Positions 5,121 to 53,228 of a stretch of DNA of 64,000 nt are shown here, in pieces. A program made the translations under genes and the position numbers. The DNA is from Methanobacteriota archaeon (GTDB lineage Archaea > Halobacteriota > Bog-38 > Methanoflorentales > Methanoflorentaceae). Numbering within the stretch: position 1 is the first letter of the stretch; every line of letters starts with the position of its first letter. The stretch spans positions 426,846-490,845 of the forward strand of contig CAVRAO010000002.1 of NCBI GenBank assembly GCA_963719035.1, in the 5' to 3' direction. The notes below the pieces were generated by a model. The model made no database searches and had not been told where the DNA came from. It was given only the letters and a program-made list of their open reading frames with translations.

Positions 5121-5306
5121 TTGACTAACGTATTTCATCGTTTGCTTTTTTGTGCCTCTAATGTATATTAACGCCGAGCTCAAGGTCGACAAAGCCTGAC
5201 AAGCCCCGAGAGCTTGGTGAAAAAAGATCCATTGCAGTTGCAGAAAGAGCGATAACACGTCTTAGTGAATAGAAGTAATATAGGGTTACAGCATACTCAA
5301 TACGAA

Positions 5307-5380
5307 GGGGCCATAGGGTAGCCTGGTTATCCTTGGGGACTGGGGGTCCTCAGACCCGAGTTCAAATCTCGGTGGCCCCA
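5307..5380 (+). tRNA. tRNA-Pro (anticodon GGG), no encoded CCA
   Basis: Manual fold: 7-bp acceptor GGGGCCA/TGGCCCC, anticodon stem GGGGA/TCCTC with loop CTGGGGG, T-arm CCGAG-TTCAAAT-CTCGG, discriminator A. Confidence 0.75.
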
Positions 5381-5594
5381 CTGCTTAAATCTCACATTAA
5401 CTGAGGGAGGTCGCCCCTGCAAAAGTTATTAAATAGCGCGCGCAACATAAAGAAGTATAGAATCTAGAGATTGCCAGCAGCGTTTTATGTGCATTTAAAG
5501 GTGCTCCCGATTTGGATTGAGCATTGCAGACGCAACATATTTTGCTAATTTATTGAATCACAGAAGATCTGTTTAGGAGCAAAAAAAGTGCCGA

Positions 5595-6629
5595 TTGGGA
5601 TTACAACTGTACGGCGTGTACATACCCCGATACAGGATCAGAGTCGAAGAGATTGCACGAGTGTGGGGAGATGACCCCAACGACATTAAAAAAGGATTGC
5701 GCGTTTTAGAAAAATCAGTCCCAGACCGAGATGAAGATACTGCTACCATCGCGGTCGAAGCTGCTCGCTCAGCCCTACGTCGATCTGGCTTAGAGGGTGC
5801 TGACATTGGAGCGATATATGTCGGCAGCGAATCTCACCCTTATGCGGTCAAACCGACGGCGACGATCGTTGCTGAAGCGGTTCGGGCAACACCAGAGCTT
5901 ATGGCTGCTGACTTTGAATTCGCGTGCAAAGCGGGAACTGCTGCAATACAGACGTGCTTAGGGCTGGTCGCTGCTGATTACATCAAATACGGCATGGCGA
6001 TAGGAGCGGACACCTCTCAAGGAGCGCCCGCAGATGCCCTTGAATATACCGCAGCCGCAGGTGGTGCAGCTTACGTCATAGGAAAGAACCACGTCATTGC
6101 TGAAATTGAGGACACATATTCATTCACAACTGACACATTTGACTTTTGGAGGCGCGAAGGCCAGCAATATCCAAAGCACGGGGGGAGGTTTACGGGTGAG
6201 CCGGGCTATTTCAAGCACGTTTTGGCAGGAGCGCGAGGATTGCTGGAAAAGACACACAGCACACCAGAGGACTTCGACTATGTGGTCTTTCATCAACCAA
6301 ACGGCAAGTTCCCACGCTCGGTTGCCTCTACGCTTGGTTTTTCACAAGATCAGCTAAAACAAGGTCTCGTGGTAGAACGATTGGGCAATGCATACTCCGG
6401 GTCAGCGCTGATTGGATTAGCGTCGGTGCTAGATGTTGCTGAACCTGGGAGTCGCATCTTTATGACCGCGTTTGGATCGGGGGCGGGCAGTGATTCGTTC
6501 ACCATTAAGGTGACAAAGGAGATCAGCAGTATCCAAGGTCTTGCTCCAACTGTCGCAGAGCTGCTTGAAGCCCCAATTTATCTAGATTATGCACTTTACG
6601 CTAAACACAAGAATAAGATAGTGCTCTAA
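5595..6629 (+). CDS. hydroxymethylglutaryl-CoA synthase (archaeal type); non-ATG (TTG) start likely
   Basis: 344 aa; N-terminal …GVYIPRYRI…, catalytic-Cys region, thiolase-fold HMGCS signatures; followed by thiolase and DUF35 (the classic archaeal trio). Confidence 0.85.
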
Positions 6630-9890: not shown

Positions 9891-10793
9891 ATGTTCATAG
9901 GCGTTGACCACGGCACCCAAGCTGTTCGTTTTGCCACCCTAGATAACAGAAAGCTTGAACTTCCGAGAGAGAACATAGTCGAATCTTCCGTCATAAACGA
10001 TGTCGAAGAGGGGTTAAATCTCAAACTTGAGTTCGTCAACCTTATTGGTCTCACGTACTCTATGGGAGACGGTATTACCAACATCACTAACATCAAAAAG
10101 GTCAGCAACAGGGGCCTCAAAGCTTCCGGCGGAGCCGGAACTTATGTTGGGGGAGGTACAGCGGTCTATGATGCGATTTACAGTTCGGATGCGCCTGCTA
10201 TCGTATTGCCGGGAATCCACGATGAGTCAAATATAGACTCTCGAATGAAGTTCTTCTCTCACGGTGCTTCACCAGAAAAAGTTGGCTTGGCCTACTACGC
10301 CTTAAAGCATCACAATGAACAAGACTTCATTCTTTGCGACATAAGTTCGAACACGGTATCTCTCGCCGTCGCTGAATCGCGTATCATCGGAGCAATTGAT
10401 GCTGCAATATTTGCCCCTGGAGTTGTGCAAGGGCCATTGGACCTCCAAGCGATAAGGGACGTTGACAGCGGATTTATGACCGCTAACGAAGCTTTTTCTC
10501 ACGGCGGTCTTTTAAAACGTCACCTTGATGAGAGCGGTATGATAGAGACCTTAGCATTGTTTGCAGCTATGGAGATCAGCGCATTGCAGGTTCTCCTGCG
10601 CGATTATACGACAGATGGCTCGATATTCTTGGCGGGTTCCGCATCGCCTAACATTAAGGATCTGTTGGAAGAGCACCTTAGCATTCCTTCAATTGTACTT
10701 GAGCCTTGGAGCGCTGCAAAGGGTTGCGCCACTGTCGCCAAAGACGTATGGGAGGGCGCCTCCGACATTTTAGGGATCCCGGTCGATCTCTGA
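9891..10793 (+). CDS. ASKHA-superfamily (sugar-kinase/Hsp70/actin fold) protein, function unknown (possibly an H4MPT-linked C1-pathway or methanogenesis-marker-like ATPase)
   Basis: 300 aa; N-terminal MFIGVDHGTQ… phosphate-1-like motif; no specific family recognised. Confidence 0.3.
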   Translation: MFIGVDHGTQAVRFATLDNRKLELPRENIVESSVINDVEEGLNLKLEFVNLIGLTYSMGDGITNITNIKKVSNRGLKASGGAGTYVGGGTAVYDAIYSSDAPAIVLPGIHDESNIDSRMKFFSHGASPEKVGLAYYALKHHNEQDFILCDISSNTVSLAVAESRIIGAIDAAIFAPGVVQGPLDLQAIRDVDSGFMTANEAFSHGGLLKRHLDESGMIETLALFAAMEISALQVLLRDYTTDGSIFLAGSASPNIKDLLEEHLSIPSIVLEPWSAAKGCATVAKDVWEGASDILGIPVDL

Positions 10794-11928: not shown

Positions 11929-13113
11929 ATGATAGATATAATGGAAGGCTCTCACGCAATTGCACTCGCAGTTAAAGCAGCGAGGCCAAACGTCGTGGCC
12001 GCTTATCCCATAACCCCTCAGACGCACATCGTTGAAGACATCTCCCAACTAATTGCCGATGGAGATCTCGAGGCGGAATACGTGAAAGTTGAGTCCGAGC
12101 ATTCTGCGATGTCAGTGTGTGTTGGAGCAAGCGCAACAGGGGCTCGAACGTATACTGCAACAACTTCACAAGGTCTAGCACTGATGCACGAGGTACTGTT
12201 CAACGCGGCAGGGATGCGATTGCCAATCGCTATGACAGTCGCCAACAGAGCGCTCTCCGCACCCCTTAACATATGGAATGACCATCAAGATTCTATTTCT
12301 GAGCGCGATTCAGGCTGGATTCAAATCTACGTAGAGGATAACACTGAAGCAAGCGATCTCACGATACAAGCATACAAAATCGCAGAAGATAAGAGAATTC
12401 AAGTCCCTATCATGGTGTGTATGGACGGCTTCACGCTCACACATACCTACGAACCCGTAGAACTCCTCGACCAAGATCTAGTTGATGATTTTTTGCCACC
12501 TTATGCACCGACAGACTACCTAACTGTTGACGATCCAAAGACCTTCGGCATGTTTGCTGATCCGAATTATTACACCGAGTTCCGCTACCAGAATCACCAA
12601 GCGCTAGAGGCAGCCAAAACGGTCATCGCAGAAGTGTCGAGAGAATTCGGTGAAGTTTTTGGAAGAGATCATGGTGGACTTATCGAAGAGTACCGCTGTG
12701 ATGGCGCCGAATACGTGTTGATGGCGATGGGATCTGTAGTCGGCACTTTGAAGGACACCGTTGACGATCTTCGAGACGCCGGTATTCGAGCAGGTGCTAT
12801 TAAGCTACGTTCATACCGTCCTTTTCCGGCCGAGGATGTTCGAAGCGCATTGGCTGACATAGAAGCCGTCGGCATTTTGGACAAAAACATCTCGCTTGGT
12901 TCTGGAGGGGCACTTTCTGCCGATGTGAAATCTGCCCTTTATCGCGGCAAGAGCACTCCAAAGGTGTTCAGCTTCATTGCGGGTCTTGGAGGGAGGGACA
13001 TACCGAAAGGAATGTTCGTTAAGATGTTTGACTGCATGCGCGAGAACAAGAAGATATCAACGAGTGAGTTTTTCGACTTAAGAACGGAGATTCTGGAGTT
13101 CCAAGAGGTTTAG
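11929..13113 (+). CDS. porA: pyruvate:ferredoxin oxidoreductase alpha subunit
   Basis: 394 aa; PFOR domain I signatures; operon position. Confidence 0.85.
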   Translation: MIDIMEGSHAIALAVKAARPNVVAAYPITPQTHIVEDISQLIADGDLEAEYVKVESEHSAMSVCVGASATGARTYTATTSQGLALMHEVLFNAAGMRLPIAMTVANRALSAPLNIWNDHQDSISERDSGWIQIYVEDNTEASDLTIQAYKIAEDKRIQVPIMVCMDGFTLTHTYEPVELLDQDLVDDFLPPYAPTDYLTVDDPKTFGMFADPNYYTEFRYQNHQALEAAKTVIAEVSREFGEVFGRDHGGLIEEYRCDGAEYVLMAMGSVVGTLKDTVDDLRDAGIRAGAIKLRSYRPFPAEDVRSALADIEAVGILDKNISLGSGGALSADVKSALYRGKSTPKVFSFIAGLGGRDIPKGMFVKMFDCMRENKKISTSEFFDLRTEILEFQEV

Positions 13114-13115
13114 AC

Positions 13116-14039
13116 ATGCAAGCAAAATACGATGAGGGATCGATAGACCTTTTAGCGTCCGGTCACAAAGCGTGCGCCGGATGTGGCGCGGCACTCACGA
13201 TACAGGCGATTCTAAGAGCGACCGGTGCAAAAGTACTTGTTGCAAACGCAACCGGCTGTATGGAAATCATTTCGTCGCAATATCCGCAATCCGCCTGGAA
13301 AGTACCGTGGATCCACTCTCTCTTTGAAAACACTGCGGCAGTCGCCTCTGGAATTGAAGTTGCGCTCAAAGCACTGGGCAGGAGCGAAGAGGGCAATGTG
13401 GTTGTAATAGCGGGTGACGGGGGGACTGTCGATATTGGCATGCAGGCTATCTCCGGAATGCTCGAGAGAGGTCACGACGTCTGCTATGTTTGCTACGACA
13501 ATGAAGCCTATATGAACACGGGAAACCAGCGAAGTGGCTCTACGCCGTTAGATGCGTCCACTACAACGAGTCCATTCGGCAAGAGATCGTTCGGAAATGA
13601 TCGACCGAAAAAGAACATGCCGGCTATAGCGGCAGCTCACGGGATTCCCTACGTAGCGACTACCTCTGTCGGCTATCCACGGGACTTAACAAAGAAAGTG
13701 CAAAAGGGCATTTCTGTCAGCGGCCCAGCGTATCTGCAAATTCACGCTCCCTGTAACATTGGATGGGGCTTCGACAGCGCGAAGACGATAGAAATCGCAC
13801 GACTCGCAGTAGACACCGGGCTTTGGATGATGTACGAAATCGTCAATGGGGAGCTCGTCAACGTAATGAAGGTGCGCAACCAACAACCCGTTGAAGACTA
13901 TCTCAAGCTCCAGAAGCGATTTGCTCACCTCTTCAAAATGCCTGGAGGCGACGCCCAGATCAAACTCATACAAGAGCTTGCAAATGATAACCTGAAGAGG
14001 TACACTCAGAAAGAAGCCGGTGACATTCAGACATCATAA
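13116..14039 (+). CDS. porB: pyruvate:ferredoxin oxidoreductase beta subunit (TPP-binding)
   Basis: 307 aa; GHKACAGCG… Cys cluster and TPP-binding GDGG motif. Confidence 0.85.
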   Translation: MQAKYDEGSIDLLASGHKACAGCGAALTIQAILRATGAKVLVANATGCMEIISSQYPQSAWKVPWIHSLFENTAAVASGIEVALKALGRSEEGNVVVIAGDGGTVDIGMQAISGMLERGHDVCYVCYDNEAYMNTGNQRSGSTPLDASTTTSPFGKRSFGNDRPKKNMPAIAAAHGIPYVATTSVGYPRDLTKKVQKGISVSGPAYLQIHAPCNIGWGFDSAKTIEIARLAVDTGLWMMYEIVNGELVNVMKVRNQQPVEDYLKLQKRFAHLFKMPGGDAQIKLIQELANDNLKRYTQKEAGDIQTS

Positions 14040-32544: not shown

Positions 32545-33117
32545 TTGCTTTTTTGAGCTTTCTGCTATGTTTTCCTGTAACTCATTTGAATCTGTACCGC
32601 TGCTGAGACCACAACAAGAAAAGCAAGTGCACCATCGTGAACCGTTTGATAAATGCGCGTTGAAAGTCCAGCAAGATTTGAGAAAGAGTGTGGTAAGCGG
32701 ATTGTGGGATAATCTGTAACCTGCTTTTGCGTGATGGAGCGATATCTTGCTGCTGTGAATCTCCAATAACTCGTGTTTGGGCAATGCAGCCTCAGCGAAA
32801 AGCTCTGAGTAATGTTCACCCACTAACATAATAGAGAACGAAGCCGATGCTAGTCACTTAAGCGTTGTGATTAGCCGCAGTGGACAAAGTTCGGCGGCAA
32901 CACGGTGACATAATTCAGTGGGATCAATCAAACCGAGCGTACATTATGACGCATGGCGTGAGTGGAATAGATTGAAAGCACTACAAGCATCCGCTGCCGG
33001 AGAACGTGTACGATGTGTATCTGCGGTATTGGGGGGACGTGCGGTTCTAGCATCCGAGAGAGCTAACGCGCCGATATTGTGGTAACTTTATTAGGGGCAA
33101 ATGTAAACGTGAGTATC

Positions 33118-43067: not shown

Positions 43068-44288
43068 TTAGTTCAAGTTCTTTTCAAGAAAACTGTTAAA
43101 CCGTTCAGAAGCATTATATTGGCTGAATACATATTTCATTCTCTGGGCTGCTTCATAATAGGCTGGTGCGTCAAGTATCATGCTCACAGCCTGCCTAGTT
43201 TTCTGTGAGGTGAGAGCCCCCCCGCGCAGCAATATACCGCAGCCGGCCTTTTCAATAGCGGTCATTGACAGGTACTGGTCGAAATTTGTTGGAATGCCCA
43301 AGACCGGAACACCTTCATTCAGAGCCTGGTATGCTGTGCTTGCGCCACCGCTGCAGATCACCAGCGCCGAACGCTGTGCCACACTATCACCGGGGACAAA
43401 TTCACATTTATAGACATGCTTTTGATGAATTTTTGTGTCCAATCTTCCGGCTGTGGCAGCTATGACGGTTACGGGGAGGTCTCTAAGGCCTTTTAAAATT
43501 GCTGGTAGCAACTTCACATTTCCAGATGAACCCATGTTTACATAAATCAGGGGACGGGATAAATCAATATCATTCCACCATACAGGCGGCTCTATATCTG
43601 GTGACCATAGAATCGGGCCAAGAAATATGTGCGTGTCGGGCTTATTCTTAAGCGGTATAAGCTCGATCGGATCGGGGTAGAGGGTATAATTCCCCCAAGT
43701 AAGCATTTCAAGCAAACTGCCAACCGGCGGCAGCTCAAACTGCTGACGTATCCGGTTGAGCGGTTGTGCAAAACGATCAAATACGGCAGGAAGTGCCTTC
43801 GGGAAATAACGTGTCGCAATTTTTTCACTCAACAGCCGCACTATGGGATGGTCAGGCATAGGAAAGGAATCACGCACTGCAAAGGGGCTCCAATATGCAT
43901 TAATTACGGGAGCATAGGGAACGTTACAGACCGGCGCACTCACTGCAAGGGAGAAACGTGCATCACCGATAATGATCTCGGGCTTAACGGACTGTATTAA
44001 CTGAATCTCTGCATCAACGTACCGCCTAAGCAGCTTTTGGGTATAAAACGACTTGCCATTTTCAGCAGATGATAAGAACGTTTTTTTATCCATCGTGAAA
44101 AGCTGCCAGTGCCGAAAGTCTGTCCGGCTGAAGATCTCAGGGTCAAAGGCTGAAGAGGCAAAATGCACTTCGTACTTCTTTTGATCAAGTGCGCGCGCCA
44201 GCACCAGGAGGCGTACCACCTGTGAGAGGGTGGTGTTCTCTACAACAAACAAAATCCGTTTTAACTGCTTCGCTTGTTCTTCTGTCAT
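43068..44288 (-). CDS. GT1-family UDP-glycosyltransferase (MGT/CrtX-like)
   Basis: 406 aa; C-terminal nucleotide-sugar motif (…HGGAST…/…GVPVLGIPTNFDQ…); adjacent to carotenoid genes. Confidence 0.75.
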   Translation of the reverse strand: MTEEQAKQLKRILFVVENTTLSQVVRLLVLARALDQKKYEVHFASSAFDPEIFSRTDFRHWQLFTMDKKTFLSSAENGKSFYTQKLLRRYVDAEIQLIQSVKPEIIIGDARFSLAVSAPVCNVPYAPVINAYWSPFAVRDSFPMPDHPIVRLLSEKIATRYFPKALPAVFDRFAQPLNRIRQQFELPPVGSLLEMLTWGNYTLYPDPIELIPLKNKPDTHIFLGPILWSPDIEPPVWWNDIDLSRPLIYVNMGSSGNVKLLPAILKGLRDLPVTVIAATAGRLDTKIHQKHVYKCEFVPGDSVAQRSALVICSGGASTAYQALNEGVPVLGIPTNFDQYLSMTAIEKAGCGILLRGGALTSQKTRQAVSMILDAPAYYEAAQRMKYVFSQYNASERFNSFLEKNLN

Positions 44289-44683
44289 ACTATATCAGCT
44301 GATAGCTCATTCCGATGATGTTGTACGTTCAATATGGTGTACCTGTGGAGGCCACGACGCGGGTTCGAATCTCGCCCGCGACCTTTTTTTTCTTTATAGG
44401 CGTCAGCTTCGCTTGCTTTTTGTAAAATAAGTGATTTTAGCTCGGCGATTTGAGATTCTAGCTGATATAAGCGATTTTCTACGTCAGGATTCTGCATAGT
44501 TGTGCAACAGTTGTCTACTACTTTATAAGCTACGACTAAGAAAGCCAACTTTCTGTCAAGAACAGTTTGATAAATTTCCGCTTTAGACCCGATCAGTTCT
44601 TGAAATTCCCGCGGCAATCGAATAATAAGATAAATGTGTGAAGGCTTCGAGCTTTGGACGCTAATTTTGTGCGTGCAGATCAT
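44285..44683 (-). CDS. ORF reading through the tRNA-derived sequence; AbrB/SpoVT-like N-terminus + coiled coil; possible Int(N) remnant of a partitioning (SSV-type) integrase
   Basis: Translation …KKGRGRDSNPRRG… is antisense of the tRNA fragment. Shares segment RLxxLESQIxxLKxLIL with the 49.5 kb locus. Confidence 0.35.
   Translation of the reverse strand: MICTHKISVQSSKPSHIYLIIRLPREFQELIGSKAEIYQTVLDRKLAFLVVAYKVVDNCCTTMQNPDVENRLYQLESQIAELKSLILQKASEADAYKEKKGRGRDSNPRRGLHRYTILNVQHHRNELSADIV
44350..44382 (+). other. orphan tRNA 3' fragment (T-arm + acceptor 3' strand + discriminator), then TTTTTTTT; att-core-like
   Basis: GCGGG-TTCGAAT-CTCGC + CCGCGAC + C; no matching 5' acceptor strand (GTCGCGG) within 100 nt upstream. 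Confidence 0.5.
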
Positions 44684-44815
44684 CTCAGCACCACACTCAG
44701 GGCACGAGACAGCGCACTTTATGTTTTCATTGTGCTCGTCCCTCTGTCATTGTTCCACCTCTTGTTAACTACTAATTAAAGCGTAGCGGAGTATAAAATA
44801 GTGTTTTAAATCCAG

Positions 44816-45301
44816 CTACCGTTGGCGGTAATCAGCAGGCACCCCCCATCTTTCTGTTACATTATACCGAGACACTGTTGACTCGAAGTGAACCCAGATG
44901 GGTGCATTATCTAACTGAGGATGCGCTGCAAAAAAAGAACTATCGCCGTAGCGTAGGGCTTCAAGAACTAAGGGCAATTCATCTTGAAAGATTTCAAATC
45001 GAAATTGAGCAGATCCAAAAACAAACCCGCCACTCACGTGACAATAGACGTGTAACGCCGGCCCTTCATCAGTGTTTTTCCACTCAGCAAGCACTTCATC
45101 TCTCATGAGCCTTGTATACCAACCACATACCTGTGATTCATTACAATCTGGGCCAATTGTCAAAAAGAGCTCGCCTGTGATATCGGAGTGGGTTAGCGTA
45201 TAACGGCGCGGGGAGATCGGATCCGTGGGTCCAATCCCAGCCACGTGTTTGACATGCAACTTTTCCGGTCGCAATCTATTCTCGCGTCTGTGCGTATCCA
45301 T
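44816..45301 (-). CDS. hypothetical protein (161 aa) within carotenoid cluster
   Basis: ORF; no domain recognised. Confidence 0.45.
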   Translation of the reverse strand: MDTHRRENRLRPEKLHVKHVAGIGPTDPISPRRYTLTHSDITGELFLTIGPDCNESQVCGWYTRLMRDEVLAEWKNTDEGPALHVYCHVSGGFVFGSAQFRFEIFQDELPLVLEALRYGDSSFFAAHPQLDNAPIWVHFESTVSRYNVTERWGVPADYRQR

Positions 45302-45934
45302 TGGTTCGCCTGCCCTTCAAATGTCCTTAAATTCCATCTCGTAGATGAATTGGGAGCCTATATCCTTATCAAAAGGGTATTGTCAAATCTTTGACGTCGT
45401 CTGTGTTCATTGATCGTGATTGTGTGCGACACCACGAAAGGTGAGGTAGACTCACTTCTTGATCCTATATTGTTGCCACACGGTCTCTCAACGTAAAGTT
45501 TATCTTTTGTTACCGTTTTTGGAGGAGTGCTTAGCTTTCACTTATAGGAGGGCAAAATGTTAGGCAAACTTCTACTAATTAAGATGCTAACGATAGCAGG
45601 GTTTGTGGTCATGCTGCTGCACGTCTTATTTTTCGTCGCCACCTTAGCGTTGCATGCCCTGTTCTTAGCTCCTCGACTTGGAAAGATAATGAAGCGTAAC
45701 TCGTCGCGGGACGCTTGTTGCTGAGCTAACCGTGCGAGGACCTGCCTCTAGGAAGAAAGAAAACCCCATCGACAGGGATGATGGCGCCTTGAACATAGCT
45801 TGCTAAGTCACTCGAGAGAAAGAGGACGACTTTTGCCGCCTCGTCAGGCGCAGCCCATCGTCCTTTGGCAAGCCGTTGGTGAAAATCATATCCACTGTTG
45901 ACAAGATCAAGCTGTACGTTTAAAATGGCACCCT

Positions 45935-46846
45935 TCACCAGAACGGGGGAAAAACTGCGGGCATCTTCAGAAGGGTAAAGACAGCAAAGGCCAGCCCGCC
46001 AAGTGCTGTGTTGACATACGGGAGATACCAGTAGAGACGGTCGATGGAAACCTCTTCGCGGAAAAGAAGTACTGCTGGAAAAAGCGGATATATGATTACT
46101 AGAAAGCTGAGCGGGTACAAGCCCGCAAGTAGGAGCACCAGCAGAGAAAATAATGTCCAAAAAGCTGTGCATAATAGGAGCGAAGAGCGCCTTCCGAGCC
46201 AGACTGCTGTCGTAGTGATCCCGGCAGCCCGGTCGTACCGGATATCCGGTATTGCGGAAAAAATGTGCATCGCCGATATATGCAAATACCCGGCGATAAC
46301 TAACAAGAGCGGGGGGGTCTGGCCTGCTGCAAGATAATAACCAAAGATTCCCGGCATGATATAGAGCATATTTGAGGAGAAATCAAGAACCGGGTGCTGC
46401 TTGAAACGGAGCGGCGGAGCAGAATAAAAATATGCAAGAAACAGAAATATAAGAAAAATCACCTGCTCGGTACGATCTTGCGTAACGAGGAGCGCCAGGG
46501 AAAAAGCAGCAAAGATAGTGAGCAGGAGCAGCGTTTTCCGGTGTTCGTTTGCTTTTAATTTGTGCTCTTTTCCCACTTTCTTGGGATTCTGCCGGTCGGT
46601 CTCCTCGTCCCAGTAATCATTGACGCCGTAGATAAACAGGTTTGCTGGGAAGAAGAAATAAAAAAGGTAGAGATAGTAGAGCGGAGAAAAAAAAATCTGC
46701 CAGTTTTCCATGCCGAGCGCGACACCCAAAACAAAGGTGCCACCGGTATAAATCCAGAATCTGAAGCGCGATATGGTAAAAGCGAGAGGGAGCAGGGATA
46801 TGGAAAGTATCCGGTTTCCCACGTTAGATTTCATACCGTGGTGCAC
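45935..46846 (-). CDS. UbiA-family prenyltransferase (lycopene-elongase/CrtEb-like by context)
   Basis: 303 aa, multi-TM; NDxxDxxxD motif (NDYWDEETD); overlaps crtB by 23 nt. Confidence 0.7.
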   Translation of the reverse strand: MHHGMKSNVGNRILSISLLPLAFTISRFRFWIYTGGTFVLGVALGMENWQIFFSPLYYLYLFYFFFPANLFIYGVNDYWDEETDRQNPKKVGKEHKLKANEHRKTLLLLTIFAAFSLALLVTQDRTEQVIFLIFLFLAYFYSAPPLRFKQHPVLDFSSNMLYIMPGIFGYYLAAGQTPPLLLVIAGYLHISAMHIFSAIPDIRYDRAAGITTTAVWLGRRSSLLLCTAFWTLFSLLVLLLAGLYPLSFLVIIYPLFPAVLLFREEVSIDRLYWYLPYVNTALGGLAFAVFTLLKMPAVFPPFW

Positions 46847-47693
46847 CCGGGAACTGAATCCTGCATAACGGGATATGCACGCTGTTGTAAAGGATTCTCA
46901 TGATAATTCGCGAGATCGAAGGGCGAACAAAAGTCCTGTAAATGACAAATGGGTCCCTTGCTATCAAAGTAGCGGTCCATTTGTACATTTCTGCAGCAGT
47001 CCTGATGGGTATCAGGTACCGGTATGGTATAAACCGGTAGCCCCGTTCCCCTTCCTCCTGCCAGCGGTAATACTGGGCGATCTGTTCCCTGATAAAGAAC
47101 CGGAACTGTTCGGGTGCGTCCCGGGCGTCTGACTCTTCCAGCCCGGAAAGACCGCACCGTCGAATATATTCTTGCGAGAAATACACCCGGCCTAATTTCA
47201 GATCTTCTGCAATGTCGCGGACGAAATTGATATACTGCATGGACCTGCCCAGCAACCGGGCATAAGGAAAGGACTTCTCGGGTAGATCAAGGATCCGTGC
47301 CATCATAAGACCTATCACCTCTGCAGAACCGTAGAGGTACTGATCGAGTTCCAGCTGCGTCTCGTACCGACTCTTGCTGAGATCAGCACGCATTGAAGAG
47401 AGGAAAGCATCAATCCACTCGCAGTCGAACTGTTTCAAGGCAGCAAGTCCTGCAAACCCGTCAATTACGACATCCCCGGTGATGCGGCCATCCGCTGCAC
47501 ACTTCCATCGATCGCAGAATGCTTTAAATTCCTGCTTCTGCTGAGGGATGCTGTCAACAAAATCGTCTGCCTGGCGGACAAAGGCATAGAGCATAAAAAC
47601 GTCCTTTCTCACTTCGGGCGGGAAAAAAAGGCTGGAATGGAAATATGTTCTACTCCCTTTTCTGAAGATCTGGTAGTGTATGGACTGCCCCAT
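46824..47693 (-). CDS. crtB: phytoene synthase (squalene/phytoene synthase family)
   Basis: 289 aa; …YAFVRQADDFVD… Asp-rich motif 1 and second DxxxD region. Confidence 0.8.
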   Translation of the reverse strand: MGQSIHYQIFRKGSRTYFHSSLFFPPEVRKDVFMLYAFVRQADDFVDSIPQQKQEFKAFCDRWKCAADGRITGDVVIDGFAGLAALKQFDCEWIDAFLSSMRADLSKSRYETQLELDQYLYGSAEVIGLMMARILDLPEKSFPYARLLGRSMQYINFVRDIAEDLKLGRVYFSQEYIRRCGLSGLEESDARDAPEQFRFFIREQIAQYYRWQEEGERGYRFIPYRYLIPIRTAAEMYKWTATLIARDPFVIYRTFVRPSISRIIMRILYNSVHIPLCRIQFPGAPRYEI

Positions 47694-47708
47694 AGTAGGA
47701 TACCTACA

Positions 47709-49202
47709 TTACTTATGGTATTTATCTGTAAGTTCAGCGGCCACTATTGTCGATGATATAATGGTCATGGGTACACCGATACCGGGGTGAGTGTAGTGGC
47801 CGGAGTAAAAGAGATTGTCGACCTTTTTGCTTTGGTGGGCAGGTCGCCATAGGGCAGTCTGGAAGAGTGTATGCGAGAGGCCCAGCGCCGTGCCCTTGTA
47901 CGCGTGATAGCGCTCTTTGAAATCATTGAGGGCAAACGCCTTTTTCACCACCACTGCATCCCGGATCCTGTCACCGGTCGAGGCTTCCAGTTTGTCCATG
48001 ATGAGGGTGTAGAACCGTTCGCGGATTTCTGGTGAATCTTCAAGCCCAGGTGCGAGAGCCACGAGGATAAACAGGGTGTCGCAGCCAGGAGGGGCAGCCG
48101 TCGGATCGGTCATCGAGGGAACATTGACGTAATAGGAGGGATTTTTTGGCCATGCGGCCTTTTTTGGGTCAAATATCTCATCGAAGTTATGCTCCCAGTT
48201 CTTATCCAGAAAGAGCGTATGGTGTGCTAAGCTCTCAAAGCGCCTGTTTACGCCCACATAAAAGACTATGGCTGAAGGGGCCATCACGCGGCGCTCCCAG
48301 TATTTCCTGTCATAGGTCCGGTACTCCGGATTGAGGAGCTCGAGTTCTGCAAACGCATAATCCGCATTCACGAGAACGATATCGGATTCATAGGTTCCTC
48401 CGGAGGTCCGGACTCCCTGTGCTTTGCCGTCTCTGACAATAATTTCCGTCACCGGTTCGTTGAACTTGAATTCTGCGCCATAGTTCTCTGCAAGATCTCT
48501 AATTACCGTTGCCACTTTCCGCATTCCCCCGACCGGATAAAAAACTCCGAGCGTAAGGTCGATGTGTGACATTATGTGGTAAAACGAAGGGGTGTTCTTA
48601 GGTGAGCCGCCTAAAAATCCGATTGAATACTCGACGATCTTTTTTGCCTCGTCACTCGTAAAGTGCTTCGAAACAAATGTGTCAAGATTCTCAAGGATGT
48701 GCATTTTCCTGCCTTCGATCAGCATGCGGCCGGAGAAGAAATCAAAAATGGATTTATAATCCCTGTAGAGCATCTCGTTGATCGAGAGGTCGTATTTTTC
48801 TTTGGCAGATGCAAGGTATTTCTTTAGTTTTTGGCCGCCACCTTGCTCAAGAGAATCAAAAAGTGCAATATTTTTATCAAGGTCAGCGGCAATGTCCAGC
48901 ACCTTGCCGTTGCCAAAATAGATTCGGTAGGAGGGGTCAAGTCGCGGTAATTCCATCAGATCGTTAGCTTTCTTTCCGAACTCCATGAAAAATTTTTCAT
49001 AAACATCCGGCATCAGGTACCAGGAAGGCCCCATATCAAATATGTACCCTTTTTCAGAATAGACACTGGCCCGTCCGCCGGGTCCTTCATTTTTCTCCAG
49101 TACAAGAACGTCGAACCCATTTTTTGCGAGCAGCGCAGCAGCTGATAGTCCCCCAAATCCTGCCCCGATAGTAATTACCTTTTTGCCGTTTTTTTCCGCC
49201 AT
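47709..49202 (-). CDS. crtI: phytoene desaturase (CrtI family)
   Basis: 497 aa; N-terminal FAD fold (…ITIGAGFGGLSAAALLAKNGFDV…), CrtI-family C-terminal signature. Confidence 0.85.
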   Translation of the reverse strand: MAEKNGKKVITIGAGFGGLSAAALLAKNGFDVLVLEKNEGPGGRASVYSEKGYIFDMGPSWYLMPDVYEKFFMEFGKKANDLMELPRLDPSYRIYFGNGKVLDIAADLDKNIALFDSLEQGGGQKLKKYLASAKEKYDLSINEMLYRDYKSIFDFFSGRMLIEGRKMHILENLDTFVSKHFTSDEAKKIVEYSIGFLGGSPKNTPSFYHIMSHIDLTLGVFYPVGGMRKVATVIRDLAENYGAEFKFNEPVTEIIVRDGKAQGVRTSGGTYESDIVLVNADYAFAELELLNPEYRTYDRKYWERRVMAPSAIVFYVGVNRRFESLAHHTLFLDKNWEHNFDEIFDPKKAAWPKNPSYYVNVPSMTDPTAAPPGCDTLFILVALAPGLEDSPEIRERFYTLIMDKLEASTGDRIRDAVVVKKAFALNDFKERYHAYKGTALGLSHTLFQTALWRPAHQSKKVDNLFYSGHYTHPGIGVPMTIISSTIVAAELTDKYHK

Positions 49203-49394
49203 GCCAAGACACCGAATCCATATCGGGGCATCCTTTTAATATAGATTTGGCAGAGAACATTTGTAATCCAGGAATAATCAGCTATCCGCAGGCAACGCAT
49301 TTTGGCGCCATTACTCGGCAAATTTGCTTAGTGGATTTGTAGACGGATAGTAAATCCTAGAAGTAGTAAAAACGTCTAAATAAGCCCTTTCGAG

Positions 49395-49532
49395 GCTCTG
49401 AATCGGGTTAAAATCCCGAACCGGGCGTTCTTTTTCAATATAAGGGTAAAAATTAATCTCTTTTTCTAAAATAAGCTTTTTTAGATCAACGATTTGAGAT
49501 TCGAGAGCGGAAAGGCGATGGTCGTAGCCTGG
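49395..49532. repeat. degenerate att-like repeat (T-arm-like + T-rich + coiled-coil-coding segment), partner of 44350..44480
   Basis: Shared anchors: taaaataag, gatttgagattc, CGGGTT-AAATC-CCG. ~70% identity by eye. Confidence 0.4.
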
Positions 49533-49535
49533 TCA

Positions 49536-49655
49536 AAACTGCACGTTAGCATACACTTCCTGTACGTCCTTATCAATAAACTGCATGTAGATTGCTGTTA
49601 TCTTTATACTAGAGTGACCCAGCACCTGCTGCACTGCCGAACGAATGACCCACAA
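49536..49655 (-). pseudogene. tyrosine-recombinase (integrase) C-terminal remnant (~40 aa)
   Basis: Translation …IRSAVQQVLGHSSIKITAIYMQF… matches the LLGHSSIxTTxIY catalytic-Tyr box; flanked by stops. Confidence 0.55.
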
Positions 49656-50129
49656 CTATAGTTCTTGCAACCCCTCAACAAACTGGCGTAGCTTGTCTTG
49701 ATAAACGCCTTTCTTGACCTCTTTTTCCTGGAGAGCAAGGATGCTTACCGGGCGTCTTTCACAGAGTGCTTCCATCTCAGCAAATAACTGCTGACTCTCA
49801 CCACCGCCATTTGTGCAAAAAAATGCTACCCGTGTGAACTTCGACTTATTGTTGGTGATGTAGGTCCGCGGAGCACTCGACAACGTGCCTGCCCAAATGG
49901 GCGTGCCGAGTATTACTAAATCGTATGACGCGGGATCACGTTTGATGTCTGTGAGCTTGGTGAGCTTCTTTGCCTTTGCGTCCCTTCCAGCCGACACAAA
50001 GCCCAGAGGCCCGCTGCGTTTTTTTGTATCAATAAGTTCTTCACTGTCGCAGTTGAGCGACTCAGCAAGCGCTTCCGCTACCTGTTTGGTCGCACCTGTT
50101 CGCGAATAAAATACCACTAAAGCCTTCAT
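49656..50129 (-). CDS. flavodoxin-like protein
   Basis: 157 aa; …VVFYSRTGATK… FMN-binding loop. Confidence 0.65.
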   Translation of the reverse strand: MKALVVFYSRTGATKQVAEALAESLNCDSEELIDTKKRSGPLGFVSAGRDAKAKKLTKLTDIKRDPASYDLVILGTPIWAGTLSSAPRTYITNNKSKFTRVAFFCTNGGGESQQLFAEMEALCERRPVSILALQEKEVKKGVYQDKLRQFVEGLQEL

Positions 50130-50220
50130 TATAAGTTCCTTCCGTAAGTTAATTCGGTTTACCGGCTTAAGGCTTTTTGCGGCAGTTCATCATTTTAATC
50201 TAGTGGATTGAAATACCCTT

Positions 50221-52095
50221 TTAACTATTTATTAAGTGCATCACTATTTTTTCAACTTCGACTGCCTTGCCATTCTTAAGATTTTTGATGCAACTATGCT
50301 GCGCTTCACGAATTTCAGCAGTAGGCTCATTAGCAATAGCCGTGAACTGAGAAACCAGCCGCTTAGCCCCGACAAAATTCCCGACACTTACCCGCCGATT
50401 AACTCCGCGGACATCTAAAACCGTCCCGTCCATACAAGGCGGGTGCTCACAATACAGACATTCAGAAGCAAATCGCATCACCTCGCGAATAGCCTCAGGC
50501 TCATCAGTAAATAGCTCAGACCTCTTAAACGGATGCGGTACAATCTCAACATAGTTGGGCATATCCTTCTTATAGGTGAATGGCTCCAAGCCGCGTTTCT
50601 TCAAAATGGCGTTGGCGGCGGTGAGGCCTGAGACGGTGACAGCGGGGGTTCCGGTGCCCATGCAGGTAGATTCGCCGCAATAGAACAAAGTGTCCCAAGG
50701 GCTTCTGATGTGCAGTCTTTTGAACATGTGTTGCCCGAGCATTTGTTTGGGGCCGGCGACGGCGCCATCATTCTTATTCGTGTAGCGCTCGATGGTGAGG
50801 GGGGAGGCTAGTTCGGCGTAGCGGACGGCTTGGCGGAAGCCGGAAAAGCGTTTTTCAATGACGTCCAGGATGCGTTGGACTTCGAGGTCTTTGCGTTGGC
50901 TGTAGGCTTCGGGGGAGAGGGATTCCCAGTTTTCGAAGGAGGGACCTATGGCGATGACGGTGTGGACGTCATCATCGCAAAGGGTTTGGTCGTCGATGCT
51001 CATGATATAAAGGGTGACTTCGCTTTCGTCGATTTGGTCGGGATTGCCGATGAGCATTTCGATAGGCAGGGTATCAGAAGGAATCACGCTTTTATCGACC
51101 GTAGTATAAAGAACGACGCTCGGGTACGTTGGAACAAGGTTCCGCGCCCATTCATTCAACGAGGGGGGGAGGTAAGAGGTGTCGATGAGTTTTCCATAGA
51201 GGTTCCAAACAGTGCCAGAGTAAATGATATCATCGCCGTAGAAGCGTTTGCCGGTCGTGATTTCGACGCCGCAGGGTTTTTCGCCGTCAAACAATATTTG
51301 GCAGACTTCGCTTTCGTAGTGAATTTCACCACCGTTTTCTTCGATACTTTTTTCGAGTTTGCCGGGCAGGAAGAGGGTGGAGCCGGCCGGGTAGTAGCTG
51401 CCGCCGAAGTGGTTGTCCACGAACATGACGGCTGCAAGAATGGCTGGGGCTTCTTCGACCGTGGCGTAGCAGTAGGTGGAGGTGAGTTTGTCGAAGAACT
51501 TGAAAATTTCAGGGTCTTTGAAATACTGCCTCAGGAGGCTTCTGGCTGATTTGTTCATATAACTCAGGAAACGTGCGTAGGAAACCGGATGGCGTAACAG
51601 GCTTTTCAGAGACTCGACTTTGTCGGTTTCGTCGGGGGAGGAGAAAACCGGATTTTCGACCATGACGTGGTGGTAAATTTCGTTGAGGTCGTAGTAGAAG
51701 CGTTTGATGTTGGCTTTTTCAGAGGGAAAAACTATGCTGAGTTCTTCAGCAAAGAGGTCAAGGTCTTCGTGAAATATGATGCGGTGGCCCTTATAGACAA
51801 CGGCGTAAAGCTGGTCGTGCTTGATGATGCGGATGGGTTCCTCCAGGCAGTTAAAAACTAAGCGGTGGGGGCTGAAGCCTTTCTCGCCGAAGCCGTAGAG
51901 CATGGCGGCGCCTTGGTCGAAAGTGGTTATGGCAGCTTGGTCAGAGGTAGCGGTGTCACGTTTGAAAACCCCGCAAGACCCGCCCGGGGTGAAAGTCTTT
52001 TCGAAGAGAAGCACTTTTTCGCCGCGTTTGGCCAGAAGGGCGGCAGCGGTTAAACCGGAGAGGCCGGAGCCGATGATGAGGGTGGTTTTGGACAC
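50221..52095 (-). CDS. CrtD/CrtI-family carotenoid desaturase-like FAD oxidoreductase with ~120-aa Cys-containing C-terminal extension
   Basis: 624 aa; N-terminal …IIGSGLSGLTAAALLAKRGEKV…; C-terminal …CLYCEHPPC…. Confidence 0.6.
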   Translation of the reverse strand: MSKTTLIIGSGLSGLTAAALLAKRGEKVLLFEKTFTPGGSCGVFKRDTATSDQAAITTFDQGAAMLYGFGEKGFSPHRLVFNCLEEPIRIIKHDQLYAVVYKGHRIIFHEDLDLFAEELSIVFPSEKANIKRFYYDLNEIYHHVMVENPVFSSPDETDKVESLKSLLRHPVSYARFLSYMNKSARSLLRQYFKDPEIFKFFDKLTSTYCYATVEEAPAILAAVMFVDNHFGGSYYPAGSTLFLPGKLEKSIEENGGEIHYESEVCQILFDGEKPCGVEITTGKRFYGDDIIYSGTVWNLYGKLIDTSYLPPSLNEWARNLVPTYPSVVLYTTVDKSVIPSDTLPIEMLIGNPDQIDESEVTLYIMSIDDQTLCDDDVHTVIAIGPSFENWESLSPEAYSQRKDLEVQRILDVIEKRFSGFRQAVRYAELASPLTIERYTNKNDGAVAGPKQMLGQHMFKRLHIRSPWDTLFYCGESTCMGTGTPAVTVSGLTAANAILKKRGLEPFTYKKDMPNYVEIVPHPFKRSELFTDEPEAIREVMRFASECLYCEHPPCMDGTVLDVRGVNRRVSVGNFVGAKRLVSQFTAIANEPTAEIREAQHSCIKNLKNGKAVEVEKIVMHLINS

Positions 52096-52370
52096 GACAT
52101 CAAATGTTCGTTTCTTATTTAGGTATTTTTTCGAAAATCCTTATCCGCCATTTTCACTTGGGAAATAGGTACTCACTGCCAATCCCACGTTGCGAATTTC
52201 AAAAGCATTCATCTCTCCAATACTTCATATATTTATCATACGCGCCGTAAGGCAAAGAGTGCTGACAACTACTCTACTCGATTCCACGAACCCCATGGTG
52301 AGGATGTACGCGCGATTGGATTTATTCCACCCCACTACATCGCCATGCTGCTCGGCACACTTCCACAGCT

Positions 52371-53228
52371 GTGCAGGTCAATCCCACGACAAGTTCAACG
52401 AATGCTAGCGCGCTCAACGCGACTCGCCTTAGCGCACCGTCCTCACAAGCTCAGAGCAACAATACTAACGCTACGCCGGCCGCAGTTATACTGAAAGTCG
52501 ATGAATCATCCACAAACGCCCCTGTGATAAGCGGAGTCCTGAGCAGCATAGCGAATGGTTTCAATTCGCAACTTACAGGTTCGACGCAAATCGTCGGCGT
52601 CGAGAACCAACAAGTTCTTTCATCGCAGTTCAAATATATCGATTTCTTTGTGCCAGGGATCATAGGCTTGACGGTCCTCACAACCGGCGTGCTTGGCACC
52701 GTTGGAACGAACACTCAGTATCGCAACAACGGAATCCTACGGAAACTCGCGACGACACCTCTCGGAAAGTCTGAGTGGATTATATCTAAAATGTTGTATC
52801 AAACTGTCGTTATATTCATTTCAGCAACCTTAATTATCGTCGTAGCCAAGCTCGTATATAACGTAACAGTAGTGCCCAATGAAGTTACCCTACTGCTCCT
52901 TTTTGTCGGCACTATATGCTTTACCGGAATTGGAATGATCATCGCGCGTTTTATAAAAGACGAGGACGCGGCAAATGCAGCAGCAAGCGCGGTCACTTTC
53001 CCAATGCTGTTCCTTGCCGGCACTTTCATCCCACTTGAAACGATGCCTGAATATCTCCAAATAGTTGCAAGGTTTCTTCCGCTTACTTATTTAAACTACG
53101 GGCTCAGAGACGCAATGATCCTCGGAGACACAGCAAGTGCATTGTATAACATGATGATAGTATTAATCGCAGGGGCCATCTTCTTTGTAATCGGCTCAAT
53201 TATAACCGATTGGCGCGAGGGCGGTTGA
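52371..53228 (+). pseudogene. ABC-2-type transporter permease, apparently 5'-truncated (C-terminal four TM helices + part of the extracellular loop)
   Basis: No N-terminal TM1; low-complexity start; no ATPase partner gene nearby. Confidence 0.45.

Follow-up and report, generated by a model that had tools for sequence, protein, structure and literature searches.

tRNA-derived attachment relics and split-integrase fragments beside methanogen carotenoid genes: probable remains of at least two related integrative elements

RESULTS

A carotenoid block between two diverged repeats

The window, that is, the whole stretch of 64,000 nucleotides that was analysed, comes from a methanogen. On its minus strand it carries a crtI-crtB-ubiA cassette (45935-49202; Pfam, and NCBIfam with 676 bits for CrtID and 350 bits for prenyltransferase PRK12875), which lies between the two attachment (att) modules described below. 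Between the left-hand module and the cassette sit, on the same strand, a Staygreen-family gene (44816-45301; PF12638, 3.3e-52) and the C-terminal relic of a short-chain dehydrogenase (45765-45884; Pfam adh_short_C2, 7e-7, profile positions 194-233 of 236). The Staygreen-family neighbour is also found in a 96%-identical sister strain (contig L135) and may be element cargo; the dehydrogenase relic marks another junction in the block. To the right of the second module come a flavodoxin gene and a gene for a 624-aa CrtD/carotenoid-isomerase-like oxidoreductase (49656-52095, minus strand; Pfam, NCBIfam), bounded in turn by an integrase relic. An ABC permease gene is present at 52371 and a glycosyltransferase gene to the left of the first module.

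A preliminary description of this DNA had pointed out a long repeat, an ORF that reads through tRNA-derived sequence and a peptide resembling the catalytic-Tyr box of tyrosine recombinases, and each of these three features is real. The repeat had been given as a resemblance of about 130 bp between 49395-49532 and 44350-44480, and it aligns significantly (score 44 against a null of 10.5 ± 1.3). By local alignment it is a single ungapped block of 120 nt, 44342-44461 against 49386-49505, with 82 of 120 positions identical (68%). Its score of 44 compares with a mean of 10.7 (sd 1.4, maximum 16) for 500 shuffles and of 10.5 (sd 1.3, maximum 17) for 1436 real chunks of the window. MAFFT showed weaker similarity out to about 44478/49522, and GATTTGAGATTC occurs in the window in these two repeats only.

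Two att modules derived from different tRNAs

The left-hand repeat (locus 1) starts with the last (3') 42 nt of tRNA-His(GTG), anticodon loop through acceptor end (core 1, 44342-44383, plus strand). Nucleotides 44342-44377 are 100% identical to positions 33-68 of tRNA-His(GTG) of relatives (L002), and the acceptor strand has two mismatches with the L002 tRNA. Core 1 lacks the tRNA 5' half and is therefore not a tRNA gene. A run of eight T (44384-44391, plus strand) directly follows the tRNA end; on the minus strand it forms a poly-A tract just ahead of the core, whose length fixes the frame in which the core is read. The tract is A8 in the window versus AAAACAAAA in L135, which results in different frames ('GRGRDSNP' versus 'RSRARFEPAS'). 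The sequence beyond core 1 does not match the tRNA, and its match to an attP-type linker was unconvincing (9/20 nt, by eye).

Core 1 is read in antisense ('GRGRDSNPRRGLHR') by a 132-aa ORF (44285-44683, minus strand) that encodes, in this order, a beta-rich N-domain, a coiled coil 'LESQIAELKSLILQK' and the antisense translation of the tRNA-His core. The family HMM matched it at 44288-44746 with E=3e-59. It had 132 homologues at E<=0.01 (best non-self 5.5e-72), and the N-domain motif was present in 114 of the best 120. The earlier suggestion that this ORF runs through tRNA-derived sequence as in SSV-type partitioning integrases thus held: it is the N-terminal moiety, Int(N), of a split type I integrase, with a tRNA 3' half serving as attP inside the gene. 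In comparison with L135, int(N) differs by one synonymous and six non-synonymous codons, and core 1 in L135 carries a 1-nt deletion and one substitution. A Pro with at least 90% conservation is Leu in the window. The int(N) of locus 1 is complete, shows decay and evolves neutrally.

The right-hand repeat (locus 2, 49372-49523) shows this int(N)-plus-core module again, in a decayed form of tRNA-Asp type. Core 2 (49383-49428, plus strand) is the decayed 3' 46 nt of tRNA-Asp(GTC): nucleotides 49383-49419 are 89% identical to positions 29-65 of the tRNA-Asp(GTC) of L005 and L007, the anticodon now being TTC and the T-loop TTAAAAT. Its extent (tRNA-Asp 29-74) equals a segment that is perfectly conserved inside an intact int gene of a relative (L137, see below). 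The next 11 nt (49372-49382, plus strand) are an attP-type continuation toward Int(C), TTATTTAGACG in the window versus TTATTTAGGCG in L137, whereas tRNA-Asp itself runs on as TCCATGATAGG. That this continuation was kept points to an ancestral int gene that was unsplit or had been re-joined and that lost its int(C) by a later deletion. Of int(N), only the coiled coil ('RLSALESQIVDLKKLILEKE') and the linker remain (49429-49523, minus strand; family HMM E=1.2e-7 at 49314-49532, model positions 83-136), the N-domain having been deleted. This relic is nearest to a tRNA-Asp subfamily (P0009/P0017/P0025).

The T-stem differences between the two cores are compensatory, each core fitting its own real tRNA. 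From each core, similarity runs on for about 90 nt, in both cases on the Int(N) side, which makes them junctions of one type. A canonical int(N) junction should include a tRNA 5' half, and this is absent from both loci. ARAGORN reported no tRNA at either core (the sole tRNA reported was tRNA-Pro, 5307-5381), and Rfam in E-value mode found none in 30-56 kb.

In a sister strain (contig L138), the core at locus 2 is a His/Asp hybrid that switches within at most 7 nt, an indirect sign of recombination activity on att substrates. The crtI side of locus 2 is conserved between L138 and the window, while the opposite side is variable. This suggests that the locus-2 relic site was reused for a later integration by an element of different tRNA specificity, in which case the comparison would offer a natural example of such reuse.

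Relatives document an integrase gene that encloses its own attachment site

Metagenomes supplied the relatives, as did MAGs with the label Halobacteriota or Methanoregula. Their Int(N) ORFs run antisense into complete tRNA-His (L002-L004), tRNA-Asp (L005, L007) or tRNA-Val (L099) genes. Two intact genes disclosed the unsplit state. In L137, a 449-aa ORF (P0165) encloses a 46-nt segment 100% identical to tRNA-Asp positions 29-74, with no tRNA gene within 10 kb. In L139, an ORF (P0125) passes through a tRNA-His core (positions 34-74) and then a complete Int(C). The coiled-coil segment singled out in the preliminary description exists in intact integrases: P0125 has '...LESQI.ELKSLILQK...', and P0165 has the same segment, its letters being divergent ('LSSLESKTDTIFQFIEANN'). 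For the family, P0165 and P0125 document an attP within the int ORF; this comes from relatives rather than from an intact gene of the window.

The two moieties occupy opposite ends of an element. In L139 about 8 kb lie between direct core repeats, in the order core plus Int(C) (5129-6430, with the core at 5343-5383), cargo, Int(N) plus tRNA-His (12901-13521 and 13291-13364); in L002, an Int(C) relic (5944-6129) is found with Int(N) and tRNA-His at 9968-10573. Cores extend from tRNA position 29-34 to the 3' end and are read in antisense, that is, int is antiparallel to the tRNA; in a minority subfamily the tRNA sequence is apparently read in sense. Stops in all frames break up the Int(N)-core-Int(C) order in L005 and L006, and the core is read in three different frames across family members. 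A continuous ORF is therefore documented in a few members only.

Int(C) is predicted to be a tyrosine recombinase

Int(C) had 494 homologues at E<=1e-3, many of which, among the best 120 of the 494, are named 'integrase' by JGI. The AF2 model of P0165 (pLDDT 79.8) shows the att-encoded linker as disordered (residues 103-134). Its top Foldseek matches were Tn1549 Int, lambda Int and Cre (E 2e-5, probability 1.0), XerH also reaching probability 1.0, and in BFVD it matched phage integrases with probability 1.0. Residues R296, K328, R388, H411 and Y421 are invariant or nearly so (57-60 of 58-60 aligned sequences); the HxxR box has another residue instead of its canonical His and reads G-D-L-R. The model thus places the protein in the tyrosine recombinase superfamily, with a predicted core-binding and catalytic fold and an R-K-R-H-Y set.

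Sequence libraries did not reveal this. PF16795 and PF00589 gave no match to P0165 (E<=0.1) or to a 277-aa protein of L006 (E<=1), NCBIfam none to P0165 at E<=1e-5 and PHROG none to the L006 protein at E<=1; a profile search of PDB sequences found no recombinase. The integrase assignment of the Int(C) family consequently rests on fold, motifs and context, with no Pfam, NCBIfam, PHROG or PDB-sequence match.

Further integrase fragments and a separate XerA-like relic

The family HMM matched the window at two more places. At 52202-52377 (minus strand) lies a relic of about the last 58 codons of the catalytic half (Int(C) HMM E=4e-8 and 5e-3, model positions 280-333). It is frameshifted, with H->M in the 'THG' box, and its C-terminal end points toward the carotenoid block, which is the polarity of the far end of an element starting at locus 1 or 2. 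No core copy survives beside it, so it could be paired with either locus by polarity only. The other match, at 32568-33047, comprises an int(N) N-domain relic that adjoins the recJ 3' end (32568-32822, minus strand; E=1.9e-16, model positions 27-71) and an int(C) C-terminal relic with an in-frame TGA at a conserved Trp (32871-33050, plus strand; E=6.7e-14 and 3.9e-10, model positions 283-336). The latter is homologous to 52212-52362 within the coding relic only.

The Tyr-box peptide, placed in the preliminary description at 49536-49655, proved to be a genuine relic of a tyrosine recombinase unrelated to the partitioned integrase. It is what remains (49533-49655, minus strand) of a separate XerA-like protein of about 175 aa, the 'E' family: its last 40 codons and native stop (49533-49535), cut off on the 5' side by the end of the flavodoxin gene. 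Against Pfam Phage_integrase the peptide reached only E=0.028, across 20 residues. Among 1.84 billion proteins, a full HMMER search gave 18 matches (best E=3.6e-8) that extend upstream into HxxRH boxes, and in full-length relatives the C-terminal LGH...Y box is continuous with the HxxR box. An intact 174-aa relative scored 2.4e-33 with Phage_integrase and 3.8e-45 with XerA. The single match of the E-family HMM in the window was the relic (E=4e-21), and the Int(C) family HMM did not match the relic, which speaks against a part of the partitioned integrase. E-family proteins share the LGH...Y box with XerA and Phage_integrase (PF00589) but have no N-terminal core-binding domain, and they are not the integrase acting on the tRNA core. 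Their genes are cargo-like; five related loci (L002, L006, L058, L099, L139) have one upstream of int(N).

DISCUSSION

We conclude, with a probability of about 0.85, that this region preserves what is left of two or more related integrative elements belonging to a type I ('SSV-type', 'suicidal') tyrosine-integrase family common in Halobacteriota methanogens. The two repeats are worn attachment sites, each made of a tRNA 3' half and the front of an archaeal integrase with an internal att. They come from two different mobile elements inserted beside the carotenoid genes rather than from the two ends of one, and the relics mark the carotenoid block as an integration hot spot.

In the free element, int is a single gene. 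In its product a beta-rich N-domain and a coiled coil are followed by a linker and then by the core-binding and catalytic domains; the DNA for the linker, some 42-46 bp, has the same sequence as the 3' part of a tRNA gene and is the attP, which runs antiparallel to the tRNA. When it recombined with the tRNA gene, int would be split, leaving int(N) beside the rebuilt tRNA at one end and int(C) with a core copy at the other. Locus 1 is a complete int(N) with its tRNA-His core; locus 2, with its tRNA-Asp core, would be an int(N) relic of far greater age. The XerA-like recombinase gene, recurrent upstream of int(N) in related elements, would have had its tail moved against the int(N) relic by a deletion. 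Homology, tRNA origin, gene architecture, polarity and decay are shown directly, whereas the sequence of events, the choice of genes as cargo and the later use of the locus-2 core as a secondary attachment site in a sister strain are inferred.

A less probable reading is that a single element some 8 kb long, reaching from core 1 (44342) as far as the int(C) stub (52377), imported the Staygreen, ubiA, crtB, crtI, flavodoxin and CrtD-like genes together, with locus 2 as a nested or older second insertion. The polarity is exactly that of L139, core and int(N) on the left and int(C) on the right with its C-terminal end inward; the intervening genes are all on one strand, and the patchy, cross-phylum distribution of the crt cassette suggests horizontal transfer. 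We nevertheless regard such an import as doubtful. The right-hand core is absent, the glycosyltransferase gene left of core 1 falls outside and GC content is not distinct. At locus 2 it is the crtI side that is conserved between strains, the other side being variable. Moreover, the cassette is conserved in 37 other methanogen genomes, and in none of these do its surroundings, out to 10 kb, contain parts of Int(N), Int(C) or E.

Quite improbable is that the 132-aa ORF is a free-standing host gene, for instance a small DNA-binding regulator, situated by tRNA genes and overlapping them as an artefact of ORF calling. Most database members are indeed short stand-alone ORFs with no Pfam match, and the stops in L005 and L006 and the variable frame through the core fit such a gene. 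Yet fused full-length genes exist (P0165, P0125), copies adjoin both partial and whole tRNAs, with several at one locus in L005, and they border strain-variable segments (L002 vs L003; L138 vs window); the neutral evolution of the window copy likewise argues against a host function.

Least probable is the bracketing proposed in the preliminary description, in which 44.3-49.66 kb is one integrated element carrying crtI-crtB-ubiA between its decayed attL and attR: the repeats are direct, significantly alike and on both sides of the cassette, with an integrase-like relic at the right end, but the same core twice with differing arms would be expected, the right end being Int(C) plus core as in L139, and we found a His and an Asp core, Int(N) arms at both, 68% overall identity despite intact flanking genes, a right-end relic foreign to the split-integrase family and the polarity-fitting Int(C) stub outside the proposed boundary of 49.66 kb.

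Returning to the reading of at least two related elements, their mechanism is already known, here in a family unseen by Pfam and NCBIfam. Suicidal integrases of the pT26-2 family have been described in Thermococcales, Archaeoglobales and, for five of them, Methanosarcinales (Badel et al. 2020, PMC7253208), and there att begins 2 nt upstream of the anticodon with int antiparallel to the tRNA (PMC7253208), a geometry with which ours agrees. Both families have attP inside the int ORF, an att made of the tRNA 3' part from just upstream of the anticodon, integration that yields int(N) and int(C) stubs, target switches between close relatives and mosaic N and C parts. In contrast, the present family has no detectable sequence similarity to PF16795, its hosts are mesophilic methanogens, and its N-terminal module of a beta-rich domain and a long coiled coil has no described counterpart in pT26-2. 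The Pfam domain Phage_integr_3 (PF16795) is common to the SSV, pTN3 and pT26-2 families (review PMC8371274); as it was not detected here, we call the family SSV-type in its working and do not file it as a sequence member of those families. Like the SSV1/SSV2 integrase (type I archaeal), it combines a partitioning architecture and the tyrosine recombinase fold with a core of about 44 bp that derives from a tRNA, but the SSV catalytic domain (PDB 3UXU) was a weak match (Foldseek E=0.9, TM 0.47 on target), behind Tn1549 Int, lambda Int and Cre.

Self-splitting integrases have so far been known almost entirely from hyperthermophilic archaea, plus the five Methanosarcinales cases, and were recognised through one Pfam domain. 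The same design here has hundreds of members in mesophilic methanogens, missed by every curated library searched, and annotation pipelines therefore label the halves 'hypothetical protein' and overlook the islands that they delimit. We tentatively propose, as a possibility with odds somewhat against it, that this large family plays a major part in building the genomic islands of mesophilic methanogens and that its relic att cores keep their capacity to recombine, which would let a tRNA-His-type element enter a mutated tRNA-Asp-type relic. If so, core reuse would give rise to mosaic blocks, among them the carotenoid cluster here and the defence islands of L005, and self-splitting would be no adaptation of hyperthermophiles.

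Bacterial genomic islands offer a parallel in their tRNA-fragment arrays, relics of tandem integration in which direct, diverged tRNA 3' fragments record successive integrations and relic cores are reused. Here, by contrast, each fragment lies within an integrase reading frame, and the fragments of one array derive from two different tRNAs. The relics of the window account for the tRNA-like fragments and odd ORFs among the carotenoid genes.

Two repeats of different tRNA origin

The preliminary description had read the crtI-crtB-ubiA segment as one decayed integrated element, bracketed by tRNA-derived repeats and accompanied by a peptide resembling the catalytic-Tyr box of tyrosine recombinases. 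An ungapped alignment of 120 nt between 44342-44461 and 49386-49505 contained 82 identical positions and had a Smith-Waterman score of 44. Shuffled sequences scored 10.7 ± 1.4 (maximum 16) and 1,436 real chunks of the window 10.5 ± 1.3 (maximum 17); the observed score lies so far over both nulls that the similarity is real and not an effect of low complexity. A fainter likeness of the two loci extended to about 44478/49522. ARAGORN predicted no tRNA at either locus. By BLAST with tRNAs from related loci, however, 44342-44377 was 100% identical to positions 33-68 of tRNA-His(GTG), and 49383-49419 was 89% identical to positions 29-65 of tRNA-Asp(GTC). These stretches belong to what we call core 1 (44342-44383) and core 2 (49383-49428). 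Where the T-stems of the two copies disagree, tRNA-His and tRNA-Asp disagree in exactly the same way, and therefore copy 2 is not a decayed copy 1. Rfam, run in E-value mode over 30-56 kb, revealed no further tRNA fragments.

A family of self-splitting integrases

The 132-aa ORF at locus 1 (44285-44683, minus strand) had 132 homologues, found in metagenomes and in MAGs labelled Halobacteriota. Common to them are three parts: a highly conserved N-domain ('ICTHKISVQSSKPSHAYPIIRLPREFRELAGSKAEIYQT..KLAFLV'), the coiled-coil stretch 'RLSALESQIxELKSLL' and a tail that is an antisense-translated tRNA ('GRGRDSNPRRGLHRA' or 'ERPSRDLNPSRSLDRA'). In the loci that we fetched, this ORF, hereafter Int(N), runs antisense into complete tRNA-His, tRNA-Asp or tRNA-Val genes; elsewhere (L005, L006, L137 and L139) it enters only a 41-46-nt tRNA 3' segment. 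When the read-through peptide was used as query in a word-indexed protein search, no match emerged. A subfamily (P0047-P0120) has the same N-domain without the coiled coil, and its tails ('EVAGSNPAEPI', 'GGRRFESGRAH') resemble tRNA T-arms translated in sense, which suggests relatives whose int gene may lie parallel to the tRNA.

The catalytic half of the integrase, Int(C), was recognized in L006, where a 277-aa ORF comes right behind a bare core and is encoded on the same strand; in L005 this place is taken by a relic of that gene. The L006 protein had 494 homologues at E≤1e-3. Among the best 120 of these, many were named 'integrase' by JGI and none carried a precomputed Pfam domain. The two halves are joined in P0165, a 449-aa protein consisting of the N-domain, the coiled coil, 'KKERPSRDLNPSRSLDRAY' and then the catalytic half. 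At its locus (L137), a perfect 46-nt tRNA-Asp segment lies within the ORF, and no tRNA gene was found within 10 kb of it. P0165 and the L006 protein gave no match to Pfam or to PDB sequences, nor did the L006 protein alone to PHROGs or P0165 alone to NCBIfam.

P0165 was modelled with AlphaFold from an alignment of 72 sequences (mean pLDDT 79.8). The model has a beta-rich N-domain, then a long helix (residues 76-101), disorder at residues 103-134, that is, exactly the att-encoded part, and two well-predicted domains at residues 143-437. The top Foldseek matches of this model in the PDB were all tyrosine recombinases (Tn1549 Int, lambda Int, Cre and XerH; E from 2e-5, probability 1.0), and its structure matches in BFVD were phage integrases. 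Among 58-60 aligned family members, R296, K328, R388, H411 and Y421 show no or almost no variation.

The mechanism is a known one, that of type-I, self-splitting integrases with a tRNA-derived att inside the gene. In pT26-2, att begins 2 nt upstream of the anticodon and extends beyond the tRNA's 3' end, int runs antiparallel to that tRNA, and the tRNA target has been switched among relatives (PMC7253208). The geometry of the present family agrees with this paradigm (PMC7253208; review PMC8371274). The known suicidal families have PF16795 in common (review PMC8371274), whereas this domain was not found here, and the catalytic domain of the SSV1 integrase was only a weak Foldseek match to the P0165 model (E=0.9). 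Because the PF16795 test fails, we describe the family as working like an SSV-type integrase and do not place it in those sequence families. Of moderate interest is that this family is large, is hosted by mesophilic methanogens and goes undetected by the curated libraries searched.

Two left-type junctions rather than attL and attR

The unsplit gene implies the order of an integrated element, in tRNA sense: tRNA 5' half, core, int(N) pointing left, cargo, int(C) pointing left, core, chromosome. L139 shows this integrated form, with a His core and a complete Int(C) (5129-6430), then ~6.5 kb of cargo and, at the far end, a complete Int(N) (12901-13521) reading into a tRNA-His (13291-13364). Since a coiled-coil relic of an earlier element lies upstream of its left core, L139 is a tandem junction.

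In the window, both locus 1 and locus 2 (49372-49523) read core then int(N), so both are left-type junctions, and the tRNA 5' half is absent at each. The 11 nt past core 2 (TTATTTAGACG) match the attP-type continuation of L137 (TTATTTAGGCG) and not the tRNA (TCCATGATAGG). The ancestor of locus 2 was therefore an int gene, unsplit or joined again, from which Int(C) was lost. Beyond core 1, 9 of 20 nt agree with the attP-type continuation in a by-eye comparison, too few to be informative. The repeat pair, its tRNA-derived sequence and the Tyr-box peptide of the preliminary description were borne out by the alignment score, the tRNA identities and the recombinase homologues presented below, and an integrase with a tRNA-type att inside its gene was the right kind of element. 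The two loci cannot be kept as the two ends of one element, since their cores come from different tRNAs and both are left-type.

Decay and a hybrid core in sister strains

A sister-strain contig (L135/L136) was 96% identical to the window over 2.5 kb and had the same gene order, namely glycosyltransferase, core, int(N) and Staygreen-family gene. The two int(N) copies differ by one synonymous and six non-synonymous codons, and core 1 by one deleted nucleotide and one substitution. Where at least 90% of the family have a conserved Pro, the copy in the window has Leu. The counts are small, but such changes at locus 1 are the pattern of a relic. The poly-A tract before core 1 (44384-44391) is A8 in the window vs AAAACAAAA in L135, which changes the frame through the core. 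Across the family, the His core is read in each of the three frames (30, 7 and 5 members), which makes the tract look like a hot spot of slippage in genes already split.

A second sister-strain contig, L138 (708 nt, the first 24 of which are Illumina adapter), was compared with 49150-49800 and matches the window at ~98% identity between crtI and mid-core 2. Past this point comes a sudden change to a tRNA-His-type core half and another int(N), with a coiled coil similar to that of locus 1. No more than 7 nt contain the switch ('A(G)CCCG', in the 5' strand of the T-stem), a sequence common to both core types, and the core half on the anticodon side has the two derived mutations also seen in the window. 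On the simplest interpretation of this one short contig, a His-type element integrated, by strand exchange in the T-arm, into an Asp-type relic that would already have been mutated. An assembly artefact could also have generated the hybrid core. A de Bruijn chimera is unlikely, since no long word at the junction is common to the two sequence types.

The Tyr-box relic belongs to a separate recombinase family

The Tyr-box peptide (49533-49655, minus strand) matched the Pfam Phage_integrase model at E=0.028 only. Scanned in full with HMMER, 1.84 billion proteins yielded 18 matches, the best at 3.6e-8, with HPHTxRHS boxes upstream and the same '...YLQFNDxDxQxxYxxVPF' tail followed by a stop. These homologues, the E family, are ~175-aa recombinases made of the catalytic domain only; an intact member matched Phage_integrase at 2.4e-33 and XerA at 3.8e-45. 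The family is abundant in metagenomes (368 loci confirmed, 80 fetched). In five related loci (L002, L006, L058, L099 and L139), an E gene or relic is found upstream of Int(N) and on its strand, and thus the position of the window relic is the usual one. A deletion has placed it directly against the int(N) coiled coil.

The peptide and the coiled coil are in frame with one TGA between them. They are not one integrase gene with a C-terminal att overlap (Mx8-like), as this TGA is the native stop of the E family, and DNA homology to that family stops exactly there. Nor is the relic the Int(C) of the split integrase: the stretch 49536-49655 had no Int(C) HMM match even at E≤10.

Integrase relics across the window

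The window was searched in six frames with HMMs built from both homologue sets. Int(N) was complete at locus 1 (44288-44746, minus strand, E=3e-59), reduced to coiled coil and linker at locus 2 (49314-49532, minus, E=1.2e-7) and to the N-domain at 32568-32822 (minus, E=1.9e-16). C-terminal relics of Int(C) were found at 32871-33050 (plus; HMM match 32871-33047, E=7e-14 / 4e-10), with an in-frame TGA, and at 52202-52377 (minus, E=4e-8 / 5e-3), with a frameshift. The start of both is near model position 280, which would reflect either a recurrent breakpoint or a tail that alone is conserved enough to be detected.

The 52202-52377 stub has its C-terminal end turned towards the block, and its core and first ~280 codons are gone. 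An element that started at locus 1 or 2 would have a right end of this appearance; an ABC-2 permease gene starts directly after the stub (52371, plus). The two Int(C) stubs, at 32.9 and 52.3 kb, are not inverted repeats of a larger unit, their homology being limited to the coding relic (~65% identity). Just downstream of recJ, the N-domain relic and the Int(C) relic are 48 nt apart on opposite strands, a divergent pair that cannot have arisen by one simple integration. The NrpR, pyruvoyl arginine decarboxylase and class II aldolase genes at 33-41 kb look like ordinary chromosome, so the relics at 32.6-33.05 kb are a separate scar.

Related modules also occur around other genes. In L005 (1-10732), Cap4-nuclease/nSTAND NTPase, MmeI-like restriction-modification and Mrr genes lie between three Int(N)/core modules, one with a tRNA-Asp and two with tRNA-His fragments, so that defence islands too are framed by this integrase family. 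In two unrelated elements, a 59-aa DUF7557 gene lies directly upstream of Int(N) (L002 9780-9959, L007 9780-9959), and its product could be a small regulator or directionality factor.

The carotenoid cassette and its neighbourhood

A methanogen is the source of the window, in which HdrA, methanogenesis marker 16, both formylmethanofuran dehydrogenase A and B, and archaeal RecJ are encoded; its GC content is ~47%. The ubiA, crtB and crtI genes (45935-49202, minus; CrtI is NCBIfam CrtID, 676 bits, and UbiA is PRK12875) have their nearest CrtI homologues in Methanoregula and Methanoregulaceae MAGs (75-77% identity). They form a compact cassette in 37 methanogen loci (L008-L044), at 60-77% CrtI identity, in Methanoregulaceae, Methanomicrobiaceae, Methanobacteriaceae, Methanomassiliicoccales, Methanofastidiosa and Ca. 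Methanosuratincola. Because these loci span at least six lineages in two phyla and have unrelated flanks, they suggest that a carotenoid-type pathway spread horizontally among strict anaerobes.

The cassette may well be mobile among methanogens. That it travels with this integrase found no support, since no Int(N), Int(C) or E match lay within 10 kb of it in any of the 37 loci, whose ±10 kb flanks held only a few unrelated tRNAs. Nothing connects its movement with this integrase family, and in the window the cassette may just be the neighbour of an integration hot spot or an insertion within one.

The genes surrounding both repeats are all on the minus strand. Locus 1 follows a glycosyltransferase gene (43068-44288), and beyond the Tyr-box relic lie a flavodoxin gene (49656-50129) and a gene for a 624-aa CrtD/isomerase-like oxidoreductase (50221-52095), both minus. 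Between the Staygreen-family gene and ubiA, a short-chain dehydrogenase C-terminal relic (45765-45884, minus; adh_short_C2, 7e-7), near a small ORF (45557-45724, plus), marks a further junction inside the block. The Staygreen-family gene itself (44816-45301, minus; PF12638, Mg-dechelatase family, E=3e-52) is a homologue that, in this methanogen, adjoins carotenoid-type genes.
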